Source of the DNA: Flavobacteriaceae bacterium
Lineage (GTDB): Bacteria > Bacteroidota > Bacteroidia > Flavobacteriales > Flavobacteriaceae
DNA: 64,000 bases
Direction of reading: 5' to 3'
Assembly (NCBI GenBank): GCA_947451525.1
Contig: CANFZM010000013.1
Location: forward strand, 5,220 to 69,219
Shown here: one piece after another, positions 310-36,210 of the stretch
How the letters are laid out: each line of letters opens with the position of its first letter
Position numbering within the stretch: position 1 is the stretch's first letter
Program-made: the position numbers and the translations under genes
The notes under the pieces: model-generated
Databases searched by the model: none
What the model was told of the DNA's origin: nothing
What the model saw: only the letters and a program-made list of their open reading frames with translations

Positions 310-2166
310 CTAATTTTTCTCAATCACATTCAAATCTACTTTCAGATTATTGATAATAAATATCTGTCTGTCGGGTGTGTTTTTACCCATATAGAATTCT
401 AAAAGAGTCTCTATTGGTGTAGCTTTATCTAACATTACGGGGTCTAATCGAATGCTTTCACCAATAAAATTCTTAAACTCGTCTGGAGAAATCTCTCCCA
501 ATCCTTTAAATCGGGTAATTTCTGGTTTTGGTTTTAGTTTTTCAATGGCATCTCTTCGTTCTTCATCCGAATAACAATAGATGGTTTCCTTTTTATTTCG
601 GACTCTAAACAAAGGCGTTTGTAAAATATACAAATGTCCTTCCTTGATCATTTCTGGAAAAAACTGCAAGAAAAAAGTTATCAAAAGTAATCGAATGTGC
701 ATTCCATCGACATCGGCATCGGTGGCAATTACGATGTTGTTGTAACGCAAATCTTCAATACCTTCTTCAATGTTTAAAGCCGCTTGAAGCAAATTAAACT
801 CTTCGTTTTCGTATACAATTTTCTTGGACATTCCATAGGAGTTCAAGGGCTTACCACGCAAACTAAATACGGCTTGTGTATTCACATCCCGGCTTTTAGT
901 AATGGAACCCGAAGCGGAATCTCCCTCGGTAATAAAAAGCGTGCTTTCTAGACTTCGTGGATTTTTAGCATCGGTTAAATGCACACGACAATCACGTAAT
1001 TTTTTATTGTGTAAATTCGATTTTTTAGCACGGTCTTTGGCTAATTTTCGAATTCCAGAAAGTTCTTTTCGTTCGCGTTCGGCTTGTAAAATTTTGCGTA
1101 AAAGCAAATCGGCAACTTCTGGATTTTTATGTAGAAAATTGTCTAATTTGGTTGTGATGAAATCGTGAATGAACGTTCTTACAGTAGGACCATTCGGACC
1201 AATATCATTGGAACCTAATTTGGTTTTGGTTTGACTTTCAAAAACGGGTTCTTCCACTTTTATGGAAACTGCTGAAACGATGGATTTACGAATATCGGAC
1301 GCTTCAAATCCTTTATTATAATAATCTCGGATGGTTTTAACGATTGCCTCTCGGAATGCGTTTAAATGCGTTCCTCCTTGGGTGGTATTTTGTCCGTTGA
1401 CAAACGAGTGGTATTCTTCGGAATATTGTGATTTACTGTGGGTTAATGCTATTTCTATATCTTCGCCTTCAAGGTGAATGATAGGATATTGCATGTCTTC
1501 CTCAGTGATGGTTTCTTCTAACAAATCTTTTAATCCGAACTCTGAAAGGTATTTTTCGCCATTAAAATAAATCGATAATCCACGATTTAAATAACAGTAA
1601 TTTTTGAGCATTTTGATGATATACTCATTTCGGTATTTGTAATTTTTGAAAATGGCTTCGTCGGCAATAAAGGCAACTTTAGTTCCTTTTCGTTTGGTAG
1701 ATTCTGCAACATCTTCTTCTAAAGTTAGATTTCCTTCCGAGAACTCGGCTGCTTTTTGTTGGTTATCTCGAACCGATTCTACACGAAAATAATTGGACAA
1801 AGCGTTTACTGCTTTGGTACCAACTCCGTTCAAACCAACTGATTTTTTAAAGGCTTTGGAATCGTATTTTCCACCGGTATTCATTTTGGAAACTACATCA
1901 ACCACTTTCCCTAAAGGAATTCCACGACCATAATCGCGAACGGTAACGAGTTTGTCTTTGATGGTAACTTCAATTACTTTTCCGGCACCCATAACAAATT
2001 CGTCGATGCAGTTATCGATAACTTCTTTAAGAAGAATGTAAATTCCATCATCGGGTGACGAACCGTCTCCGAGTTTCCCAATGTACATTCCAGGACGCAT
2101 TCGGATGTGTTCTTTCCAATCGAGTGAACGAATATTGTCTTCGTCGTATTTAGTTTCGTCTGCCAT
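310..2166 (-). CDS. parE: DNA topoisomerase IV subunit B
   Basis: GHKL motifs ([19 protein letters not shown]), TOPRIM EGDSA, DADVDG, RFKGLGE; 618 aa. Confidence 0.92.
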
Positions 2167-2347
2167 TTTAAAATAAATCGAATTTGTGCTAATGTAGTGA
2201 ATTTCGAAGTGTATTTAAAATGATATTTACCAAAGTTATTAAGAATGTTTTTGACAATTTAATGAGCTAGAAGTTGGGAGATGGGAGATGGAAGTTGAGA
2301 GAAAAGAATATAGAAAATGGATTATTGGAAAATTATTTGGATTATGT

Positions 2348-2370
2348 GATTTCTCCTGCGTCGAAATGAC
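2348..2370. repeat. REP-like element (GTCATT...AATC family)
   Basis: GATTTCTCCTGCGTCGAAATGAC. Confidence 0.6.
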
Positions 2371-2402
2371 AAAAATAGTTCCTATAACAACTGATTTTTC
2401 TC

Positions 2403-2543
2403 TTGCCCCAGATTGTAATGGAAAGCATTTTGCAGGAAAACGCTATTTTTTGTTGCCCTAAAAAAGCGACCAACGGAAGCTCTTTTTAGGGCTTACAAAA
2501 AAAGTTTTTTACAAAAAATCTTGGAATGGAAAGCTGGATTAGG
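2403..2543 (+). ncRNA. Flavo-1-like structured repeat element, copy 1
   Basis: GCCCCAGATTGTAATGGAAAGC ... TTGGAATGGAAAGCTGGA ends shared with the other copies; family name recalled, not searched. Confidence 0.55.
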
Positions 2544-2547
2544 CCCA

Positions 2548-2578
2548 TAAAAAAACCGCAAAATTTCTCTTGCGGTTT
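2548..2578 (-). terminator. Intrinsic terminator after ychF
   Basis: AAACCGCAA / TTGCGGTTT stem with an A-tract on the left. Confidence 0.7.
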
Positions 2579-2596
2579 ATCTATTTTGTTTGATGA

Positions 2597-2620
2597 GATT
2601 GCTTCGTTCCTCGCAATGAC
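2597..2620. repeat. REP-like element abutting the ychF stop
   Basis: GATTGCTTCGTTCCTCGCAATGAC, identical to 9424-9447. Confidence 0.75.
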
Positions 2621-3714
2621 TATACGTTGAAACGGAAATGCATCACATCGCCATCTTTAACGATGTATTCTTTTCCTTCTACGCGAAGTTTTCCGGCTTC
2701 TTTTACTTTGGCTTCTGACCCAAAATTAGAGAAATCTTCGTAAGCGATAACCTCAGCACGGATGAATCCTTTTTCGAAATCGGTGTGGATAACTCCAGCC
2801 GCTTTTGGTGCGGTATCTCCAACGTTTATGGTCCAAGCACGAACTTCTTTAACTCCTGCCGTGAAGTAGGTTTGTAGTTTTAAAAGTCGGTAAGCAGCAC
2901 GAATTAATACGGCTGAACCTGGCTCGGTTAACCCCATATCTTCTAAGAACACTTGACGTTCTTCATAACTTTCTAATTCGGTGATATCGGCCTCTGCCCC
3001 TACCGAAAGGATGATTACTTCGGCGTCTTCGTCTTTTACTAATTCGCGAACTTGATTTACATATTTATTACCATTTACAGCCGATTCTTCATCTACGTTA
3101 CAAACATACAATACTGGTTTGGCAGTGATTAATTGGAAATCTTCTAATAAATCTATTTCGTCTTGATTTTGAGGAAGCACGGTTCTAGCAGATTTTGCTT
3201 GAAGTAAATTCTCGCGAATTCTATCTAAAAATGCTTTCTCTACTTGGGCTTCTTTATTACCCGTTTTGGCGGCACGATTTACTTTTTCTAAACGTTTTTC
3301 AACCGTTTCTAAATCTTTTAATTGCAATTCGATATCGATAGTTTCTTTATCACGAATTGGGTTTACATTTCCATCAACGTGAACAATATTATCGTTATCA
3401 AAACACCGCAACACATGAATGATTGCATTACACTCTCTGATGTTTCCAAGAAATTGATTTCCTAAACCTTCGCCTTTACTTGCTCCTTTTACTAAACCTG
3501 CTATATCTACGATATCTACAGTTGCCATTTGAACGCGCTCTGGATTTACCAATTCTTCTAAACGAATCATTCTTGGATCGGGTACGTTAACCACCCCAAT
3601 ATTAGGTTCGATAGTACAAAACGGAAAGTTGGCACTTTGCGCTTTTGCATTAGATAAACAATTAAATAAAGTTGATTTTCCTACGTTTGGTAATCCTACA
3701 ATTCCTGCTTTCAT
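2620..3714 (-). CDS. ychF: Redox-regulated ATPase YchF
   Basis: MKAGIVGLPNVGKST, FPFCTIEPN, DIAGLVKGAS, C-terminal DGDVMHFRFNV; start trimmed to the MKAG methionine. Confidence 0.95.
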   Translation of the reverse strand: MKAGIVGLPNVGKSTLFNCLSNAKAQSANFPFCTIEPNIGVVNVPDPRMIRLEELVNPERVQMATVDIVDIAGLVKGASKGEGLGNQFLGNIRECNAIIHVLRCFDNDNIVHVDGNVNPIRDKETIDIELQLKDLETVEKRLEKVNRAAKTGNKEAQVEKAFLDRIRENLLQAKSARTVLPQNQDEIDLLEDFQLITAKPVLYVCNVDEESAVNGNKYVNQVRELVKDEDAEVIILSVGAEADITELESYEERQVFLEDMGLTEPGSAVLIRAAYRLLKLQTYFTAGVKEVRAWTINVGDTAPKAAGVIHTDFEKGFIRAEVIAYEDFSNFGSEAKVKEAGKLRVEGKEYIVKDGDVMHFRFNV

Positions 3715-3964
3715 TGTGACTGTTATTTTTAAAAGTGTGCAAATATAAGGTATTAATGTCAAGTTACAAAAGCTTTAAAAATTGCAGTCTTCAAAACAGT
3801 CGTCCTATAAATTAAACTAATTTAATTTTTGCTAAATTACTTTTACAAATGATACATTAAGCTTTCTGAATATGGGATTTTTACAATTATTTTCTTATTG
3901 AATGTAAGAAAATCATTAGTAATTTCATTGAACTTTGTTGGATAATAATTAAAAAACTGTACCT

Positions 3965-4504
3965 ATGAAAACTATTCTAATTGGAGCCACAACCTTACTG
4001 ATTTCGCTTAACATGCAGGCACAAAACACTAATGTTAAAGATGAGACAAAAACTACCACTACCACTATAACCGATTCAAAAGGGGATAAAAAATATGTAA
4101 AAAAAGAAAACACTCGTGAAGTGCAAGAAATTGAACTGAAAAAAGAAAATCCAAATTCACCCAACATTGAAACGAAACCATCTCCAGTTGAAGTAGTTAC
4201 TACAACTAAAATAACAAATCCGGATGGAACCACTAGAACTGTAGATATAGACAGAACTTCGTATTATTCATTTAATGGAAAAAAATACAAAGTAGATTTA
4301 GATGCAAAAGGATATAGAATTATTTCAGACGATTCTAAAAAAACAGCATTATTGAGAAAAACTTCTACCAATAGTTTTATTTATAGAAATGGTGAAAAAA
4401 CATCAATTGGCTATTTTGACATCAACGGAAATTTGGTTTTAGAAACTTATGACCCAAAAACCGATAGTGTTTCTTATGAAACTTATATCGTTGCAAAAAA
4501 ATAA
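3965..4504 (+). CDS. Hypothetical secreted protein, Thr/Lys-rich
   Basis: 179-aa ORF with signal-peptide-like N-terminus (MKTILIGATTLLISLNMQAQ), followed by a terminator. Confidence 0.75.
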   Translation: MKTILIGATTLLISLNMQAQNTNVKDETKTTTTTITDSKGDKKYVKKENTREVQEIELKKENPNSPNIETKPSPVEVVTTTKITNPDGTTRTVDIDRTSYYSFNGKKYKVDLDAKGYRIISDDSKKTALLRKTSTNSFIYRNGEKTSIGYFDINGNLVLETYDPKTDSVSYETYIVAKK

Positions 4505-4520
4505 ATATTTGATGTAATTT

Positions 4521-4559
4521 AAAAATCCTGTATCAATTAAATGATACAGGATTTTTTTT
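4521..4559. terminator. Bidirectional intrinsic terminator
   Basis: AAAAATCCTGTATCA / TGATACAGGATTTTT stem between convergent genes. Confidence 0.85.
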
Positions 4560-4560
4560 G

Positions 4561-4911
4561 TTATTCGTTGTGCAAAAATGCTTGTCTATTTAAAAGCGTT
4601 TCTTCGCTTTCTACATGATTATCATCTGGAATACAACAATCTACAGGACATACTGCAGCACATTGTGGTTCTTCATGAAATCCTTTACACTCGGTGCATT
4701 TTCCAGGAACAATATAATAAACATCATCGGAAACTGGTGTTTGTGCAGCATCCGAATCGACTTCGGTACCATCAGGCAAAATAACTTTCCCTTTTAGTTT
4801 AGTACCATCCTTGTAACGCCAATCGTCTGCACCTTCATATATTGCTGTATTAGGACATTCTGGCTCACAAGCACCACAATTAATACATTCATCTGTTATT
4901 ATTATTGCCAT
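4561..4911 (-). CDS. 2x[4Fe-4S] ferredoxin
   Basis: [12 protein letters not shown] and [18 protein letters not shown] motifs. Confidence 0.92.
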
Positions 4912-5026
4912 TTTTAAATTTTAGATATTAAAATTTAGATATTAGATTTAAAAAATCTATTTTCCTAAATGATTTGTTTAATTTTGTGCAAAATTACAAT
5001 CAAAACCATTCATAAACAAGTTACAA

Positions 5027-6085
5027 ATGTTACAAATCGAAAAAAAAAACTGCTTTATAGCATTAGGGAAGTTTTTAAGCCAATTTTCATTAGATAATTC
5101 TGCGAAAAACCCTGCAGTTGTAAACAATGATTTGTTTTATGAGGAATTTTTAAACTTGATTGATTTATCGCAATCCCACAATGGATGGTTTACACCAGAT
5201 CAAGTTTATTTTGCTATACAATCTTGGGCAGAAGCACTTACCGAAGACAATTTAAATCTTTGGTTATCCAAATATGATTTCAGCACCATACAACCCAAAA
5301 CCGTTGCATTAATTTTAGCAGGAAACATTCCGCTAGTAGGTTTTCATGATTTTTTATCGGTAGTAATTTCAGGTCATAAAGTATTGGTAAAAACATCTTC
5401 TAACGATCAGAAACTGTTGCCTTTTTTAGCCAAATATCTTATTTCAATTCATCCTGAACTAGAAAACCACATCACCTTCACTGAAGGGAAAATGGAAAAT
5501 TTTGACGCCGTTATTGCCACAGGAAGCAATAATACAGCACGTTATTTTGAATATTATTTTAAAGACAAACCAAGTATTATTCGAAAAAGCAGAAATTCGG
5601 TTGCAGTTTTAACAGGAAATGAAACCCAAGAAAATTTAGCAAATTTAGGCGAAGATATTTTTAGATATTTTGGCTTGGGATGCCGAAATGTTTCTAAATT
5701 ATTTGTTCCAAAAGGCTATAATTTTGATGCTTTTTTTCAAGCAATTTACGAACAAAAGGACGTTATTTATTATGAAAAATATGCTAACAATTATGACTAC
5801 AACAAGGCAGTTTTCTTGATGAGTAATTTCAAATTATTAGATAATGAGTTCTTAACTATTAAGGAAGATTCTAGTTATGCCTCCCCTATTTCGTCGGTAT
5901 TTTATGAATTCTACGATGATATAAACGAAATTAAAAATCGTTTAGAAGTAGATGCAGAGCAAATTCAATGTATTGTTTCTAATGGAATTACAGATAATAG
6001 TATTCCATTTGGGCAAACCCAAAAACCAAACCTTTGGGACTATGCCGACAATGTAGATACTTTGGAATTTTTGTTGGGAATTTAG
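5027..6085 (+). CDS. Acyl-CoA reductase (LuxC-like)
   Basis: AGNIPLVGFHD, ATGSNNTARYF, YFGLGCRNVSK motifs. Confidence 0.85.
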   Translation: MLQIEKKNCFIALGKFLSQFSLDNSAKNPAVVNNDLFYEEFLNLIDLSQSHNGWFTPDQVYFAIQSWAEALTEDNLNLWLSKYDFSTIQPKTVALILAGNIPLVGFHDFLSVVISGHKVLVKTSSNDQKLLPFLAKYLISIHPELENHITFTEGKMENFDAVIATGSNNTARYFEYYFKDKPSIIRKSRNSVAVLTGNETQENLANLGEDIFRYFGLGCRNVSKLFVPKGYNFDAFFQAIYEQKDVIYYEKYANNYDYNKAVFLMSNFKLLDNEFLTIKEDSSYASPISSVFYEFYDDINEIKNRLEVDAEQIQCIVSNGITDNSIPFGQTQKPNLWDYADNVDTLEFLLGI

Positions 6086-6699
6086 GTAGTTTCAAATTTC
6101 ACGTTATCGTAAATATCGGATAATTTTAATTTTATTTCAAGTGCTTCAATTTCGAAACTATCTTGAATCGATTTATATTCCGTCATCAACCAACTTTGGT
6201 CTTGATTTCTGTAATATTTAATAACATTCAATTGTTCACTATCTATTAAAATATATTCTTTTAAGGTTTCAATTTGTCTATACAATTCAAATTTTTGACC
6301 TAAATCATAACTTCGAGTTGTTTTAGATAAAATTTCAAAAATAACAATAGGATTTATTGCAGTATCCTTTTCGTTATCTAAAGTTTCTGCCTCGTTACAA
6401 TATACACTAATATCTGGATAAGTATATAAGGTGTTTTCAGGGATGTTAACTCTCATATCACTTCCGTAAGGGCGGCAAGGTTTTCCTTTCAATTTATGTT
6501 TTAATTCATAAATACAATTAGCAGAAATTTCGTTATGCGATTTGGATGCACCACTCATGGCAACTATTTCACCTTTTGTATCTTCATATCTATGTAAAGG
6601 AAAAACTTCACCTTTATAATATTCATGTTTATTTAACGCCAATCGCTCGGCATCAAGATACTCTTGTTCAGTGATATAATGTATTTGTGGAATTCCCAT
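6082..6699 (-). CDS. Uma2 family (PD-(D/E)xK-like) endonuclease
   Basis: KHEYYKGEV, MSGASKSHNEI, YPDISVYC, EILSKTTRSYDLGQKFELYRQI; the ORF-track TTG start lies inside a TAnnTTTG box, so ATG at 6699 was chosen. Confidence 0.85.
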   Translation of the reverse strand: MGIPQIHYITEQEYLDAERLALNKHEYYKGEVFPLHRYEDTKGEIVAMSGASKSHNEISANCIYELKHKLKGKPCRPYGSDMRVNIPENTLYTYPDISVYCNEAETLDNEKDTAINPIVIFEILSKTTRSYDLGQKFELYRQIETLKEYILIDSEQLNVIKYYRNQDQSWLMTEYKSIQDSFEIEALEIKLKLSDIYDNVKFETT

Positions 6700-6717
6700 T
6701 GCAAACCTTTTGAAATA

Positions 6718-6725
6718 CAAATATA
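6718..6725 (-). promoter_or_regulatory. -7 promoter box for Uma2
   Basis: Revcomp TATATTTG. Confidence 0.55.
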
Positions 6726-6891
6726 CTATTTATTTTAATTCTAAAAATTAAATCTCAATTGAAATCTAGACAAAATAGGTTATCAACTATTACGTTTTCG
6801 TTAATAACATAGCCTTTTTATTGCCATATTCAAAAGTCGATTTCCAACACTATTTCCGAAATTTGCACCTTTAAAATTTGGAAACTACACC

Positions 6892-7962
6892 ATGAAAAAA
6901 CACAACTACAGCGCAGGTCCTTGTATCTTACCACAAGAAGTATTCGAAAAATCGGCACAAGCCATTTTAAATTTTAATAATTCCGATTTATCTTTATTGG
7001 AAATTTCACACCGTAGCAAAGATTTTGTTGCTGTAATGGACCAAGCAAGAGCCTTAGTTTTAGAACTTTTAGGACTTGAAGGTAAAGGATACCAAGCCTT
7101 ATTTTTGGCAGGTGGAGCAAGTTTGGAGTTTCTAATGGTTCCTTATAACTTAATGAAAACCGACGGAAAAGCTGCTTATTTGGATACTGGAACTTGGGCA
7201 AACAATGCCATAAAAGAAGCCAAACATTTTGGAGAAACCCTTGTAGTTGCATCCTCTAAAGAGGAAAATTACAACCACATTCCAAAAGGATATTCTATTC
7301 CTACGGATGCTTCATATTTTCACTGTACAAGTAATAACACCATTTTTGGAACCCAAATGAAATCGTTTCCAGAAACGGATCTTCCAATGGTTTGCGATAT
7401 GAGTTCGGATATTTTTTCTAGAACTTTAGATTTTTCTAAATTCGATTTAATTTATGCTGGAGCCCAAAAAAATATGGGTCCTGCAGGAACTACTTTGGTG
7501 GTTGTTAAAGAAGAAATCTTAGGAAAATCAGGTCGTTACATTCCGAGTATGTTGGATTATGAAAAACATATTAAGGCTGAAAGCATGTACAACACGCCAC
7601 CGGTTTTCCCTGTTTATGCATCGCTATTAACGCTAGAATGGTTGAAAAACCTTGGCGGAATTGCTGCAATAGAAAAAATTAATAAGGCTAAAGCTGCTTT
7701 ACTTTATGCAGAAATAGACAGAAATCCTTTATTTAAAGGTGCTGCCGCTGTGGAAGACAGAAGTATCATGAATGCAACTTTCTTATTAAACGACGAAAGC
7801 CACGCTCCTATCTTTGACAAAATGTGGAAAGATGCTGGAATTTCTGGTTTGCCAGGACACCGTTCTGTTGGTGGATACCGCGCTTCTATGTACAATGCTT
7901 TACCATTGGAAAGCGTGCAAGTATTGGTAGATGTGATGCAGGCTTTGGAGAAAAGTGTTTAA
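6892..7962 (+). CDS. serC: Phosphoserine aminotransferase
   Basis: NYSAGPCILP, GAQKNMGPAG (PLP lysine), GHRSVGGYRASMYNA. Confidence 0.95.
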   Translation: MKKHNYSAGPCILPQEVFEKSAQAILNFNNSDLSLLEISHRSKDFVAVMDQARALVLELLGLEGKGYQALFLAGGASLEFLMVPYNLMKTDGKAAYLDTGTWANNAIKEAKHFGETLVVASSKEENYNHIPKGYSIPTDASYFHCTSNNTIFGTQMKSFPETDLPMVCDMSSDIFSRTLDFSKFDLIYAGAQKNMGPAGTTLVVVKEEILGKSGRYIPSMLDYEKHIKAESMYNTPPVFPVYASLLTLEWLKNLGGIAAIEKINKAKAALLYAEIDRNPLFKGAAAVEDRSIMNATFLLNDESHAPIFDKMWKDAGISGLPGHRSVGGYRASMYNALPLESVQVLVDVMQALEKSV

Positions 7963-7972
7963 TTTTTTTTAG

Positions 7973-7980
7973 TATATTTG
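7973..7980 (+). promoter_or_regulatory. -7 promoter box for the kinase-GNAT pair
   Basis: TATATTTG 13 nt before the ATG. Confidence 0.55.
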
Positions 7981-7993
7981 AAGTCTAAAAATA

Positions 7994-8605
7994 ATGAATG
8001 ATGAAATACAACATATCATTTCAAGAAAGAGCCAAATTGGGAAAGGAATTGTTGTCAAAACAATTACCGATTTCCTTGCAGGATGCCAAGAAGCAAGTGG
8101 AATGGCTAAAACAGATAAGCACTTCAAAGAAAAAGAAACAAAGAATTTAATTAACTTTATAGAAACTGAGAAACTTTGGTATTCCTCCATTAACATTAAT
8201 GATTATATTGCGGAAGGTGCTGAACAAAAAGTTTATATTAAAAATGAAAATAGTGTTTTAAAACTAAATGATTCTATTTATTATCTTTCTTGGATAGATT
8301 ATTTTCAAAATTTACTACTTCACAATTATTTTTTCCCTGACACTTGCTATGATTTATTAGGTTTTTATTTACATGAAGGCATATTATATGCTGTTGTACA
8401 ACAACCTTTTGTAAAAGCTACTGAAAAAACAGATTTAGATTTAGTTAAACTTTTTTTAACCAATAATGGATTTCAAAACACAAGAAATAATGATTATTTT
8501 AATCCAGAATTAAGATTGATTTTAGAAGATTTGCATGATGAAAATGTGCTTACTCAAAATGGAATATTGTATTTTATAGACACCGTTTTTTATATTACAG
8601 ATTAA
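7994..8605 (+). CDS. Putative protein kinase-like protein (polyvalent-protein kinase family-like)
   Basis: AEGAEQKVY (Gly-loop-like), LKLN, EDLHDENVL (catalytic-loop-like), FIDTVF (DFG-like). Confidence 0.6.
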   Translation: MNDEIQHIISRKSQIGKGIVVKTITDFLAGCQEASGMAKTDKHFKEKETKNLINFIETEKLWYSSININDYIAEGAEQKVYIKNENSVLKLNDSIYYLSWIDYFQNLLLHNYFFPDTCYDLLGFYLHEGILYAVVQQPFVKATEKTDLDLVKLFLTNNGFQNTRNNDYFNPELRLILEDLHDENVLTQNGILYFIDTVFYITD

Positions 8606-30959: not shown

Positions 30960-31031
30960 CATAAAAACAATATTTAAAGTTTATGAAAAACAACCTTAAA
31001 CTTTAAACCTTAAACTTTTAAACTAAAAACT

Positions 31032-32662: not shown

Positions 32663-33274
32663 ATGAATATTATAATTCACCCAAGTTATTTTCCTTCTAT
32701 AAGTCACTATGTTGCTTTAGCAAATGCCGACACGGTGACTTTGGAAATGGAAGATAACTTCCAAAAACAAACTAACCGCAACAGAATGTATATTTATAGT
32801 CCGAATGGCATTCAGTTACTGAATATTCCTATAAAACATTCTGATAATGCCCATCAAAAGATTCAGGATGTAAAATTGGAAACTGCATTTGATTGGCAAA
32901 AACAACATTTCAAATCGCTAGAAGCAGCCTATAGAACTTCACCTTTTTTTGAATATTTTGAGGATGATTTACGTCCAATTTTTACCAAAAAACATACTTT
33001 TTTAATGGATTTGAATTTGCAAACAATGGAACTTGTTTCTAAATGTTTGGGGATGAATTTTACTCCCGAAAAAACTACAGAATATTTTCACGAAATAAAG
33101 GACAAAACTGATTATCGAAATTTAATAAACGGAAAAAAAGACACTACACAACTAGAGTCTTACACTCAGGTATTTGATGATAAACATGGATTTATAAACA
33201 ATCTTAGTATTTTGGACTTATTGTTTAATGAAGGACGTTATGCTAAGGATTATTTGAAGAATCAAAAGTTGTGA
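32663..33274 (+). CDS. WbqC family protein
   Basis: PSYFPSI, FQKQTNRNR, NLSILDLLFNEG. Confidence 0.85.
   Translation: MNIIIHPSYFPSISHYVALANADTVTLEMEDNFQKQTNRNRMYIYSPNGIQLLNIPIKHSDNAHQKIQDVKLETAFDWQKQHFKSLEAAYRTSPFFEYFEDDLRPIFTKKHTFLMDLNLQTMELVSKCLGMNFTPEKTTEYFHEIKDKTDYRNLINGKKDTTQLESYTQVFDDKHGFINNLSILDLLFNEGRYAKDYLKNQKL
33242..33266 (+). repeat. Left direct repeat of the Fic islet (within the wbqC 3' end)
   Basis: GCTAAGGATTATTTGAAGAATCAAA versus GCAAAGGATTATTTGAAGAATCAAA at 34146-34170 (24/25). Confidence 0.85.
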
Positions 33275-33349
33275 TTCTAGAATTTATTTTCTAAATCCCT
33301 TATTTTTAATACCTTTATAAAGAAAAATGAATTTATACAATAATTTTAG

Positions 33350-33357
33350 TACCTTTG
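33350..33357 (+). promoter_or_regulatory. Bacteroidota -7 promoter box for the putative Fic antitoxin
   Basis: TACCTTTG (TAnnTTTG) 7 nt before the ATG. Confidence 0.6.
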
Positions 33358-33364
33358 TTGTGTT

Positions 33365-33559
33365 ATGAAATTCTACGAAAAATATCCGCAGTTACAAGAA
33401 AAAGACTTTTTATCTAAAGTACTTATAAATACTGTATTTTCTACAATGTCGCTTGAAGATCAACAAGTTTCAAAAGTTACGGTTACGAAAATTGTCGCAT
33501 CTATTTTAAAAGAAAAAGAATTAAAAGGAAGTCAATTCTTCACCAATCAGTTGGGTTAA
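33365..33559 (+). CDS. Small putative Fic antitoxin (alpha-inh-like motif)
   Basis: 64 aa with TMSLED resembling (S/T)xxxE(G/N); own TAnnTTTG box at 33350-33357; overlaps the fic 3' end by 39 nt. Confidence 0.55.
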   Translation: MKFYEKYPQLQEKDFLSKVLINTVFSTMSLEDQQVSKVTVTKIVASILKEKELKGSQFFTNQLG

Positions 33560-34105
33560 TAGTTGGTAGTTGCCACTATCGGCTTGTTTCATAGCATCAA
33601 TATAAAATTTTCTGCTTTCTCCTTCACGGAAATATAACTCTAAAGGTTGGTATCCAAATTTCATAGCAACAAGATTCATTAATAATCTTCCAGTTCTTCC
33701 ATTTCCATTATTGAACGGATGAATTCTAATAAATTCATAATGTGCATAAACCAAACACTCAATGTGTTCTTCCCGTTTTTTAGCAATTGAAATTTTAAAG
33801 TTTAAATTATCAATAAACTGATACATTGCTTGTAAAATCAATACAGGTTTGGGTGGAATTAGTTGCCCAACCGTTACTTCGATGATCCTCCATTTTCCTG
33901 CCCAATCATAAAGTTGTCCGAAAGCAATTTTGTGAATTTCAAGTAATAGATTGGTAGAAATTGAAATCTCTGAATCTAATTCAAATAGAAAAAACTCTGC
34001 ATTTGCAATCCCTTTTGCTTCTAACTCGTTGATTTCATTTTTATCCGTTAAACCAAGAAGATTATCGTCTGGAAAAGGAGTCCAGTTTGTATTAGTATCC
34101 TCCAT
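33521..34105 (-). CDS. Fic family protein
   Basis: HPFNNGNGRTGR Fic motif; IHKIAFGQLYDWAGKWR. Confidence 0.92.
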   Translation of the reverse strand: MEDTNTNWTPFPDDNLLGLTDKNEINELEAKGIANAEFFLFELDSEISISTNLLLEIHKIAFGQLYDWAGKWRIIEVTVGQLIPPKPVLILQAMYQFIDNLNFKISIAKKREEHIECLVYAHYEFIRIHPFNNGNGRTGRLLMNLVAMKFGYQPLELYFREGESRKFYIDAMKQADSGNYQLLTQLIGEELTSF

Positions 34106-34145
34106 ATTTAAAAAATATTTTTTACTATAATAAAGATTAAGTTTT

Positions 34146-34170
34146 GCAAAGGATTATTTGAAGAATCAAA
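34146..34170 (+). repeat. Right direct repeat of the Fic islet
   Basis: Reads AKDYLKNQTI* in the wbqC frame (TAA at 34176-34178). Confidence 0.85.
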
Positions 34171-34184
34171 CTATTTAAAATATA

Positions 34185-35102
34185 CTATTTTAGTTGGAAC
34201 TCAATTCCTTTTTCATCAACATAGAAAGTTTTATCTCCTCTTTTTACCTGTAATAATCCTTCTTGATATCCTGAGTAATCAATTTGGTCATAACCAATTT
34301 TATTGATAAATTGTTGTTTGGCATAATCGTATAAATATCGTAATTTATCTGTCTTACCAGTAAATAAACCTATGTGTTGTATACCAGAACCTCCACCATC
34401 AATATAATTATCACTGCAAACTAGAGTACTGTTTTTATCATTTACCACACATATTAGTTGGTCTTTTCTAACTGTAAAACAATAGGTATAATTTTCATCA
34501 AAATAACGAACCCCTTCAATAAAATTGTATTCTAAATTTAGGAAAACCTTACCTGTTGTGGTAATAACTCCATATTTTTTATTGAGATTAACCGAATAAA
34601 GATCGTAAGACTTATCTAAATTAGAAAAAATCTTTCTTATGCCATCGTATTGTGGCAATACTAAAATGGCACCTGTACGTTGGTTTCGTATGCCTTTCTT
34701 TCCTGTAATTGAATCATTTATAATACCAAACTCTTCTTTCTTAATCCTAGCCTGTTCTTGTTCCTCGTCAAACACCGAGGTTTCTTCTTGTGGAACATCC
34801 ATTCTGTCATAATAATTAAAGTCTTTAGGTACGTTTATTTTTAGTCCTTTTTTATTAATAAAAAATTTCTCCTCTCCCAGTTTTACGTAGGCTAAGGTAT
34901 CGGTACTATTGGTTTTTGGGATTTGGTAGGCTGTAAATGGATAAACAATTGCATCATAAGTAGGCTTAATTACAAATTGCATTTTTCGGTTGGTAAAGCC
35001 CCATTTATTATTTTTAATAACCGGAATTAAATTTGGCAGATTTTGTGCAGATAATAAGTAACCCATTAGTAGGCACAAAAATAAAAAATAGTATTTTTTC
35101 AT
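34185..35102 (-). CDS. Secreted WG-repeat protein
   Basis: Signal peptide; NKWGF, KKGI, KKYGV repeats; start trimmed to MKKYY. Confidence 0.7.
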   Translation of the reverse strand: MKKYYFLFLCLLMGYLLSAQNLPNLIPVIKNNKWGFTNRKMQFVIKPTYDAIVYPFTAYQIPKTNSTDTLAYVKLGEEKFFINKKGLKINVPKDFNYYDRMDVPQEETSVFDEEQEQARIKKEEFGIINDSITGKKGIRNQRTGAILVLPQYDGIRKIFSNLDKSYDLYSVNLNKKYGVITTTGKVFLNLEYNFIEGVRYFDENYTYCFTVRKDQLICVVNDKNSTLVCSDNYIDGGGSGIQHIGLFTGKTDKLRYLYDYAKQQFINKIGYDQIDYSGYQEGLLQVKRGDKTFYVDEKGIEFQLK

Positions 35103-35163
35103 TAGGAGGAATTTTGTCAAAATAATTGTTTTTGGATTGGACAATTTTTAGAATAAACAACTT

Positions 35164-36210
35164 CTATTCCATCATCAACCTAGTCAAAATAGGGAAATGA
35201 TCGGAATTTTTAAACAACGGAAAGTTTTCAAAACTTTTTACCTTCATTCGTTTATCTACAAAAATATAATCTATTCGTGCTGGATAATATTTAAAATTAT
35301 AGGTTTCCCCAAAGCCATTTCCAGCCTCTTCAAAGCAATCGCTTAAGTTTCCTTTAATACTTCGGTATACGTACGAGAAGGCGCTGTTATTCATGTCACC
35401 ACAGATAATCATTGGGTAGTGACATTCCTTTTTATGATTCCGTAAAATTTCGGCTTGCAGTTGCTGTTTTTTAAATGCTTGGCTAATTCGTCGCACCATC
35501 ATTTGCGATTTTTGCTGGCTAATAGAATCTACATTATCCTGTATTTCATTAACATCCGGAGAAATTTTTATCGACTGCAAGTGCATATTATATACCCGAA
35601 TAGTATCTTTTCCTTTTCGGATATCGGCATACACAATTAAATTATCCGATTCTGGGAACTCAATATTCCCTTGATCTACAATAGGATATTTAGAAAATAT
35701 TGCTTGACCGGTTTTAATATTTTTGCCTTGCATAAAAATAAATCGGTGTTTGTAAACACGTAAATCAACTTTGGCCGTTTTGGAATATTCTTGAATACAC
35801 AGAATATCTGGATTTTGGTCGTTGATAAACTGTCTTATAGTATCACCAATATGCTCTTGCGGAAGCCAATTGAAAAGATTGAACAACCGAACGTTGTAAC
35901 TCATCACAATAAAATCTTTATCTTCTTCTGGCTGGGGATTGGAAGAAAATTTATAAAACTTATTTATGAATGTAATTCCGATAATTAATACGATTCCGGA
36001 AAGGATCATTTGTCGTTTTAATTGGAACATCCAATAAATAAAAAACAACCCATTCACTATTAAAAACATAGGTAGAATAAGGGTTAGAACCGACAAAAAG
36101 GGAAAAAATGTTGGCGCTAAAAATGGTAAAACATAGGCAAGGAACGTCAATACAGTGAGTACTATATTAAAGGAGAACATTACTTTATTAAACCAAGATA
36201 GTTTTTTCAT
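35164..36210 (-). CDS. Endonuclease/exonuclease/phosphatase family membrane protein
   Basis: MSYNV, CIQE, CGDMN, RIDYIF, SDHFP. Confidence 0.88.
   Translation of the reverse strand: MKKLSWFNKVMFSFNIVLTVLTFLAYVLPFLAPTFFPFLSVLTLILPMFLIVNGLFFIYWMFQLKRQMILSGIVLIIGITFINKFYKFSSNPQPEEDKDFIVMSYNVRLFNLFNWLPQEHIGDTIRQFINDQNPDILCIQEYSKTAKVDLRVYKHRFIFMQGKNIKTGQAIFSKYPIVDQGNIEFPESDNLIVYADIRKGKDTIRVYNMHLQSIKISPDVNEIQDNVDSISQQKSQMMVRRISQAFKKQQLQAEILRNHKKECHYPMIICGDMNNSAFSYVYRSIKGNLSDCFEEAGNGFGETYNFKYYPARIDYIFVDKRMKVKSFENFPLFKNSDHFPILTRLMME

Follow-up and report, generated by a model that had tools for sequence, protein, structure and literature searches.

What places a small gene pair between two nearly identical copies of a neighboring gene's 3' end? 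The question is raised by a locus in a 64,000-nt stretch of contig CANFZM010000013.1 (positions 5,220 to 69,219 of the forward strand; Flavobacteriaceae bacterium, assembly GCA_947451525.1), which we call the window. At this locus wbqC is followed by two convergent genes, one of them encoding a Fic protein, and then by a second copy of the wbqC end. A preliminary description took the two copies for attL and attR, the repeats left by an integrative islet. Comparison with relatives indicates that the direct repeat pairs a working allele of the conserved wbqC tail with an orphaned one. The islet is probably a joint made by host recombination between a Fic-bearing and a WG-repeat-bearing version of one hotspot, located between wbqC and an endonuclease/exonuclease/phosphatase gene (EEP), with each allele stemming from one version.

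The direct repeat and what it encloses

A repeat search of the window gave a direct repeat of 30 nt, with 28 of 30 positions identical, at 33237-33266 and 34141-34170; the copies start 904 nt apart. Within it, the perfect 22-nt core AAGGATTATTTGAAGAATCAAA occupies 33245-33266 and 34149-34170. None of 100 dinucleotide shuffles gave such a core match, and the whole 2.84-Mb assembly holds exactly two copies at up to two mismatches, both at this locus. Counting its diverged end, the repeat reaches 38 nt, and the insertion measures approximately 0.87 kb. The repeat and its perfect core, already noted in the preliminary description, are therefore real and specific to this site.

The wbqC gene itself (32663-33274, plus strand) is an intact open reading frame (ORF) of 203 aa that matches PF08889 (E 6.5e-34) and ends in AKDYLKNQKL*. 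The left repeat copy (33237-33266, plus strand) lies within this functional tail and is followed by AAG TTG TGA (K L *). The right copy continues in frame through ACT ATT TAA to a stop at 34176-34178, forming an orphan wbqC tail, AKDYLKNQTI* (34141-34178, plus strand). Both endings agree with how they were first read. The repeat had also been said to bracket exactly the Fic/antitoxin pair, but it encloses more than that. Besides a 64-aa ORF on the plus strand and the 194-aa Fic gene on the minus strand, which converge with a 39-nt overlap, the bracket contains the final two wbqC codons and their stop, a gene remnant of about 40 nt (33284-33322), and roughly 14 nt of filler (34127-34140). GC content is 29% over 33275-34140 and 33% for the window.

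No sign of dedicated mobility machinery was found. The ORF list and a Pfam domain scan gave no recombinase or integrase in the islet or its flanks, Rfam RNA and tRNA scans of the locus gave no match, and the stretches 33275-33364 and 34106-34140 of the window contain no attC-like element, repeat, or palindrome.

Alternative contents of the wbqC/EEP site

Across about 20 genomes of the genus the gene order is lepB, wbqC, and then EEP on the opposite strand. The stops of wbqC and EEP are approximately 4-90 nt apart in most of these genomes, and about 900 nt apart in one further genome. EEP (35164-36210, minus strand, PF03372) is the convergent neighbor of wbqC genus-wide. Against this background the window has 1.9 kb of extra DNA, made up of the Fic pair and a WG-repeat gene (34185-35144, minus strand, PF14903), which encodes a putative lipoprotein and is accessory at this site.

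Using Fic, WbqC, and the WG protein to search metagenomic relatives, and then examining the contigs, we recovered six arrangements, which we designate by letter. In the E type (L049/L050; WbqC 96% identical, ending KNQKL*) the stops of wbqC and EEP abut, with nothing inserted. The T type (L051; WbqC 97%, KNQSL*) has a beta-barrel/TonB-receptor-like gene that ends 8 nt past the wbqC stop, and in the Am type (L052-55; WbqC 94%) an aminotransferase gene comes next, in a different synteny. C types (L058-L062) have wbqC ending ...AKDYLKRQTL*, then 6 nt, the WG gene, a spacer, and EEP, with no fic. The A type, comprising the window and L056/L057 (93.5% identical), reads wbqC, Fic pair, orphan tail, WG gene, EEP. 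Finally, the B type (L156-L163; Fic 92-97% identical) reads wbqC, Fic pair, EEP, and has no WG gene. The WG gene is thus present in A and C types and absent from the E, B, and T types as well as from the roughly 20 genus relatives. The window's backbone identity is 92-95% with the cluster of E, T, B, and A types and 76-86% with the more distant C type, which falls outside that cluster. Other cargo does occupy the same site in other strains, as the preliminary description had thought worth checking: the beta-barrel, aminotransferase, and WG genes are all examples.

These relatives give each repeat copy its own ancestry. WbqC proteins that are 92-97% identical end in KNQKL*, KNQSL*, or similar, and KNQKL* is a natural allele that occurs in fic-less relatives (L049 and L052-55). 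Immediately to the right of the left copy, the remnant at 33284-33322 (minus strand) corresponds to the 3' end of a beta-barrel/TonB-dependent-receptor-like gene. It matches the end of the L051 gene at 30 of 38 nt, a score equaled by 1 of 5000 shuffles, and it reads ...GIKNKGFRK* where L051 reads ...SIQNNDIRK*. The remnant is present in every A-type and B-type relative. Together with the natural KNQKL* ending, this match identifies the sequence just past the left copy as sister-lineage chromosome rather than element DNA.

The right copy has a different affiliation. In the fic-less C types the wbqC tail, ...GCAAAGGATTACTTAAAGAGACAAACGCTTTAA, is followed by 6 nt and the WG stop, an order that lines up colinearly with the window's right copy, ACT ATT TAA ending, 6-nt gap, and WG gene. 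In blastn, 46 nt of the C-type empty site align to both 33245-33290 and 34146-34192 of the window. This colinearity identifies the right copy as a QT[I/L]*-type end of wbqC that was once in use. It retains the geometry seen beside the WG gene in fic-less genomes, and so belongs with WG and not with fic. Two earlier expectations are borne out here, namely that the right copy is the displaced end of wbqC, and that an empty site would carry a single copy with WbqC ending in ...QT[I/L]*, as the C types do. The two tails therefore differ in their endings (KL* with TGA on the left, TI* with TAA on the right), and each is accompanied by its own native downstream neighbor. In the sister lineage L056/57 the orphan has drifted to AKNYLGNQTF* within surrounding DNA that is 93.5% identical to the window. 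The same insertion with a decayed orphan indicates that the event is old and fixed, and that the orphan is non-functional.

The B types show what the locus looks like without the repeat pair. All eight contigs, from several samples and two sub-lineages, share the left junction of KNQKL*, beta-barrel remnant, and module. The interval from fic to the EEP stop is only 40-55 nt long in them and contains neither a WG gene nor a recognizable full repeat copy. The islet thus exists independently of the repeat pair. In a tree of the module, the nearest neighbor of the window is the B-type contig L163, at 96% identity, and the window differs from L163 by a clean indel of the orphan, the WG gene, and part of the spacer. 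The filler that separates the module from the orphan tail (34127-34140, no strand) differs in sequence among A-type, L156-type B, and L163-type B junctions.

We propose that the convergent and nearly abutting wbqC and EEP genes flank a recombination hotspot, at which related strains hold alternative contents. The A type in the window would then be a composite. On the left it is B-like, in that wbqC ends in KNQKL* and is followed by the beta-barrel remnant and the Fic module. On the right it is C-like, with the last ~38 nt of a QTI* allele of wbqC, the 6-nt gap, the WG gene, and EEP. One end of the exchange may have been homologous, lying in wbqC/lepB or in EEP and the spacer, and the other may have been an illegitimate join at approximately 34127-34141. 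The best-supported reading is that this joint fits the pattern of homology-facilitated illegitimate recombination, a process reportedly described by de Vries and Wackernagel (2002) and Prudhomme et al. (2002) for the uptake of foreign DNA. The term is in current use (PMC8116780, PMC6382021). As in that process, one end appears anchored in a conserved gene while the other is joined without homology, foreign DNA comes to lie beside the anchor, and resident DNA is deleted or retained. Unlike it, the Fic locus is known from sequence alone and has no visible microhomology at the joint. Because the intergenic gap is 0-14 nt, only insertions that regenerate a complete gene end spare both genes, and selection would enrich for paired tails.

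The direction of the event could be either of two. Fic-bearing DNA may have entered a WG-bearing genome, or the WG gene with its attached wbqC tail may have entered a Fic-bearing genome; in either case a B-like arrangement must have existed apart from the repeat pair. Gain of WG is fitted by the clean indel between the window and L163 and by EEP, which is B/E-like up to about 200 nt from the WG gene. A mosaic test for C-type import into EEP was suggestive but not decisive, with only 3 of 10 fixed differences C-like in the first 200 nt.

Several points weigh against a joint of this kind. The perfect identity of the 22-nt core exceeds what the sampled C-type allele would lead one to expect, since that allele differs at about 4 of 26 positions, and the explanation has to call on gene conversion or on a donor closer than any sampled. 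B types retain the last ~25 nt of the spacer between WG and EEP of the A and C types, and L163 shares an identical 11-mer with the wbqC tail of the C type; both fit loss of WG, so that B could derive from A by deletion. Gene-end duplications recur around the module family in six loci, which could mean a dedicated mechanism instead of the survival of chance recombination products. In addition, no microhomology is evident at the proposed illegitimate joint. The missing parent would be a C-type genome inside the 92-95% cluster, with a wbqC tail reading ...AAGAATCAAACTATTTAA.

As a simple deletion derivative of A, the B type was considered and rejected on account of a filler of ~20-30 nt that has no match in the window's WG region, though the shared spacer still allows it. 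A, B, and C types have in common the last ~25-30 nt before the EEP stop, which the E type lacks; this stretch aligns weakly with a wbqC tail. Local alignment of the B-type junctions with wbqC tails and with the spacer gave p values of approximately 0.007-0.01, uncorrected for about 20 tests. The EEP-proximal spacer of the window (35133-35163, no strand) is tentatively assigned, by local alignment, as an older, eroded wbqC tail. If so, it may be an earlier orphan, and the hotspot may have accreted tails repeatedly.

Module copies elsewhere and competing explanations

The Fic module occurs in 9 of 400 other genomes of the genus, every time at another site. Among species-representative genomes we collected 80 module loci at unrelated sites, distributed over Flavobacteriaceae, Chitinophagaceae, Sphingobacteriales, Cytophagales, and other groups. 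The closed genome of Ilyomonas sp. (OZ244776.1) has four copies at separate places (L118, L121, L122, L126), two of them 8 kb apart, which points to intragenomic spread. At about 15 of the 66 loci with enough flanking sequence, direct repeats around the module beat every cross-locus control, and each repeat has its own sequence. These loci include two classes, arrays and solitary modules.

In the array class, at least three copies of a 100-150-nt element lie between units of one or two genes (G327/L041, L076, L127, L132, L137, L155). The array of L041 (G327:C30) spans 2640-8040 and that of L076 (Flavobacterium lotistagni) 1320-7060. Other units in these arrays are ParE/RelE-like toxin-antitoxin pairs and small lipoproteins, and the elements are spaced 485-1840 nt apart. 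They have ends of the ...GCTAAC / GTTAGC... type and an apparent Bacteroidetes promoter on the minus strand. This organization resembles integron cassettes and CALINs (Neron et al. 2022, PMC9024848) in its one- or two-gene units and ...AAC / GTT... ends. It differs in that the array repeats have no significant fold, no integrase exceeds the cut-off, and the window copy has no array element. An attC reading of the G327 array repeats, suggested by their TGCTAAC...GTTAGCA ends, was rejected when four 150-nt copies folded no better than shuffles (z -0.4 to +0.3). The G327 repeat had no match outside its own contig. Integrons are reported to be very rare in Bacteroidetes (PMC9024848).

No genome that we checked passes the TIGR02249 integron-integrase cut-off of 265 bits. 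In the window's genome the TIGR02249 matches are all at XerC/D level, the best at 72.6 bits; other tyrosine or serine recombinases were not surveyed exhaustively there. Four genomes (G327, G180, G240, G116) encode tyrosine recombinases of 380-580 aa that match the model in two pieces, at 108-123 and 87-99 bits. These are well above XerC/D level; they carry a long extension at the N terminus, and their middle region is shortened. They are located at G327:C3:45-1796, G116:C58:557-1696, G180:C255, and G240:C19 and C321, mostly at contig ends. Three of the four genomes hold cassette arrays or array-like flanks, and such recombinases are missing from the window's genome and from four other module-bearing genomes. 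The best candidates (G327 C3 and G116 C58) are not adjacent to a sampled array.

In the solitary class the module lies between two copies of the end of a neighboring gene, and the intact gene, on whichever side it lies, is always oriented towards the module. The duplicated ends belong to an ABC transporter gene in G116 (26-50 nt), a RumA-like methyltransferase gene in L102 (~120 nt), a protein kinase gene in L097 (21-49 nt), a membrane protein gene in L112 (33 nt), and a 99-aa gene in L116 (39 nt); at L124 the duplicated part is a gene's 5' end (105 nt). For G116, relatives that are at most 78% identical show the ancestral adjacency of the ABC transporter gene and lpdA in part of the genus, a distance at which the two tails are not typable. 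A longer duplication occurs at L115 (Chitinophagaceae; 2716-3693 and 5044-5457), where the module separates a complete gene from a partial second copy that codes for 137 aa. The copies have near-identical C-termini, the duplication is far longer than a tail, and the gene is desaturase-like by sequence only.

We pooled the comparisons of working tail and orphan from the window, G116, L097, L102, L112, and L116. Differences fall at codon positions 1, 2, and 3 in a ratio of 5/1/18, and 16 are synonymous and 8 non-synonymous. Chi-square values calculated by hand are approximately 20 against an even 8/8/8 split and approximately 9 against a mixture with a freely decaying orphan. This third-position bias indicates that both gene ends evolved under coding constraint, rather than one target having been copied in place.

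The bias bears directly on the possibility that the module was inserted in situ with a long target duplication, the DNA entering where the wbqC tail had a staggered break and ~30 nt being copied by fill-in. Such insertions were described for restriction-modification units (Nobusato et al. 2000, Gene 259:99; Furuta et al. 2010, PMC2853133), and their repeats frequently extend across a start or stop codon. Furuta et al. required an insert of <20 kb without mobility genes, a repeat of >30 bp, an empty site in a related genome, and R and M genes. The Fic locus formally shares the short, "selfish" unit without mobility genes, the repeat of ~30 nt spanning the neighbor's stop, and the empty site, and the window's copies are 28/30 identical; its repeat length is borderline, the R and M criterion does not apply, and the cargo is a Fic pair. 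Copying one target leaves unexplained why the copies have different natural last codons (AAG TTG TGA and ACT ATT TAA), each allele with its own neighbor, and why a beta-barrel remnant lies inside the bracket. It also sits poorly with the bias to third positions across loci and with close relatives, the B types, that carry the cargo without a second copy. We therefore consider it improbable, and since the copies do not come from one target, the locus resembles the long-target-duplication class without our claiming membership. The attL/attR reading, in which an integrase-less islet targets the wbqC 3' end, either served by a tyrosine recombinase in trans or as the remnant of a larger element, is rated lower still. 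It draws on the perfect core with a single-copy empty site, on module copies in cassette-like arrays of 100-150-nt repeats, and on the recombinases of G327, G180, G240, and G116, which match TIGR02249 with up to 123 + 99 bits. The supposed element would, however, contain native DNA (KL* and the beta-barrel remnant), B types hold the islet without a right site, a finding that goes most of the way to refuting this reading, and flanking repeats differ completely in sequence between genomes. The window's own genome offers TIGR02249 matches of at most 73 bits, the window copy has no adjacent attC-like element, and the array repeats fold no better than shuffled sequence. The locus also has neither an integrase nor a tRNA. 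On all these points together the att-site part of the preliminary description falls, while its displaced terminus and empty site stand.

A recombinase-free cassette is the strongest of the alternatives, and still unlikely. Here host recombination between the tails would excise a circle containing one tail, the remnant, and the Fic module, which a Campbell-type crossover would re-insert into a wbqC tail. The structure is exactly as this would predict, with a 22-nt core, "incoming" codons after the left copy, and "resident" codons after the right. Like pairs of tails flank the module in G116, L097, L102, L112, and L116, and an older orphan may be stacked beside EEP. Set against this, 22-38 nt is at the lower limit for a RecA-dependent crossover, B types show no second copy long enough for excision of a circle, and the insertion dates far back and has become fixed in two lineages, in one of which the orphan is decaying. 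Extended to the family, the idea becomes that the Fic pair, and perhaps toxin-antitoxin cassettes generally, are recombinase-free mobile units made of cargo and a surrogate for the last 20-120 nt of a host gene, and that integron-like tyrosine recombinases handle the same cassettes in array-bearing Bacteroidota. This generalization is doubtful. It would have host recombination excise the unit, the tail act as a homing arm into related genomes, and successive arrivals pile up orphan tails at hotspots such as wbqC/EEP. Chance similarity or an assembly artifact can be practically dismissed: AT-rich DNA (33% GC) inflates short matches, but no shuffle reproduced the core, the right copy is colinear with relatives' sequence, and independent assemblies from other samples (L056, L057) have the same structure.

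Recombination between two versions of the wbqC/EEP hotspot remains our preferred explanation, and our verdict is that the locus is an ordinary recombination scar at a hotspot and a neat example of a recurrent pattern. Clean att-like repeats around a small islet can arise without site-specific machinery, by a route in which alternative hotspot contents recombine and leave two alleles of a gene end side by side, and this calls for caution in the annotation of genomic islets. The example has empty, intermediate, and occupied sites all sampled, and the pattern it represents is that of toxin-antitoxin or defense cassettes lodged between working and orphaned gene ends in compact genomes. If this pattern reflects a real mode of spread, addiction and defense modules could colonize chromosomes without transposases or integrases. 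If both the surrogate-tail and array modes hold, two modes of mobility would be linked for the same cassettes.

Genes and affinities of the Fic module

The conserved two-gene module (33331-34126, no strand) was delimited by DNA homology to copies in other genomes. Alignments by blastn to eight other genus loci run from 33331/33344 to 34090/34123, and the limits were complemented by boundary comparison. The fic gene (33521-34105, minus strand) encodes 194 aa and matches PF02661 (E 9.2e-20, 71.7 bits, cut-off 24). Its motif HPFNNGNGRTGR has the His, Phe, GNGR, and last Arg of HxFx(D/E)GNGRxxR, with N replacing D/E, and is kept in 68 of 80 Fic homologs. The protein matches the structures of FICD and VbhT. 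Its best NCBIfam match is TIGR02613, "mobile mystery protein B" (E 3e-21, 76.1 bits), which is under the cut-off of 124.4, and the match to the VbhT model is weak (50 bits, cut-off 800). It also matches PDC-S04, a candidate defense family of PADLOC (E 4e-43).

The partner ORF (33365-33559, plus strand, 64 aa) is a likely antitoxin and the conserved convergent neighbor of fic in 77 of the 80 loci, the exceptions being cut by contig ends. No Pfam, PADLOC, or NCBIfam family matched it above threshold. Its score with TIGR02612, "mobile mystery protein A", is 13 bits (cut-off 122.6), a weak match to the C-terminal part of the 150-position model. The motif TM[SAC]LE[DN], T-M-S-L-E-D in the window, occurs in 71 of 72 partner ORFs; its E is followed by N in 34 and by D in 37, and by D in the window. 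An inhibitory motif [S/T]xxxE[G/N] on a separate small protein marks class I Fic antitoxins, and TM[SAC]LE[DN] would be the position-for-position equivalent of that inhibitory helix.

The module looks like a class-I-type Fic toxin-antitoxin pair, with a predicted toxin of the AMP-transferase type and a partner that supplies an inhibitory glutamate. Class I modules such as VbhT/VbhA and FicT/FicA were reportedly characterized by Engel et al. (2012) and Harms et al. (2015). The likeness lies in a small Fic protein with the HxFxxGNGRxxR loop and a separate small protein with the inhibitory motif (PDB 3shg, 3zc7). The differences are that the known operons are antitoxin-first, whereas here the genes converge with a 39-nt 3' overlap (77/80 loci); that N stands for D/E in the loop; and that D follows the Glu in the window's partner, whereas the canonical N is present in half of the family. 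The TIGR02612/TIGR02613 pair and PDC-S04 likewise involve a Fic-family protein with a small partner in mobile contexts. Scores with the TIGR models are below their cut-offs, however, and the window's partner has 64 aa compared with 150 model positions. As a convergent, overlapping pair, the module is widespread in Bacteroidota and is a putative toxin-antitoxin or defense system. An addictive or defensive character would help the cassette persist after recombination into a genome.

The box TACCTTTG (33350-33357, plus strand) lies 8 nt upstream of the partner ATG and conforms to TAnnTTTG, which we take to be the Bacteroidetes -7 promoter element. All aligned homologous loci have an equivalent box. 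On the minus strand, the -7 box of fic (34110-34117) is TATTTTTG or TATCTTTG in B types, L056, and cassette copies, and TATTTTTT in the window; this change of a conserved G to T could lower toxin expression. A sigma-70-type promoter scan stayed at background (6 matches, 6.9 expected), such a scan being uninformative for Bacteroidetes promoters. Type II toxin-antitoxin pairs do not usually converge and overlap at their 3' ends as these genes do over 39 nt (33521-33559), and the arrangement implies that the two transcripts are antisense to each other. Between the window and L056, about 200 nt covering the partner ORF and the overlap (33394-33590) are almost 100% identical, compared with ~93% in the flanks, which suggests strong constraint or a recent exchange of the segment.

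Another presence/absence polymorphism lies 2 kb upstream of the Fic locus. The gap between dapB and lepB is 72 nt in the window (30960-31031), and relatives have a small gene there (L049 2943-3221, L051 480-842) with a match to 23S_rRNA_IVP (PF05635) and a weak match to bAvd.

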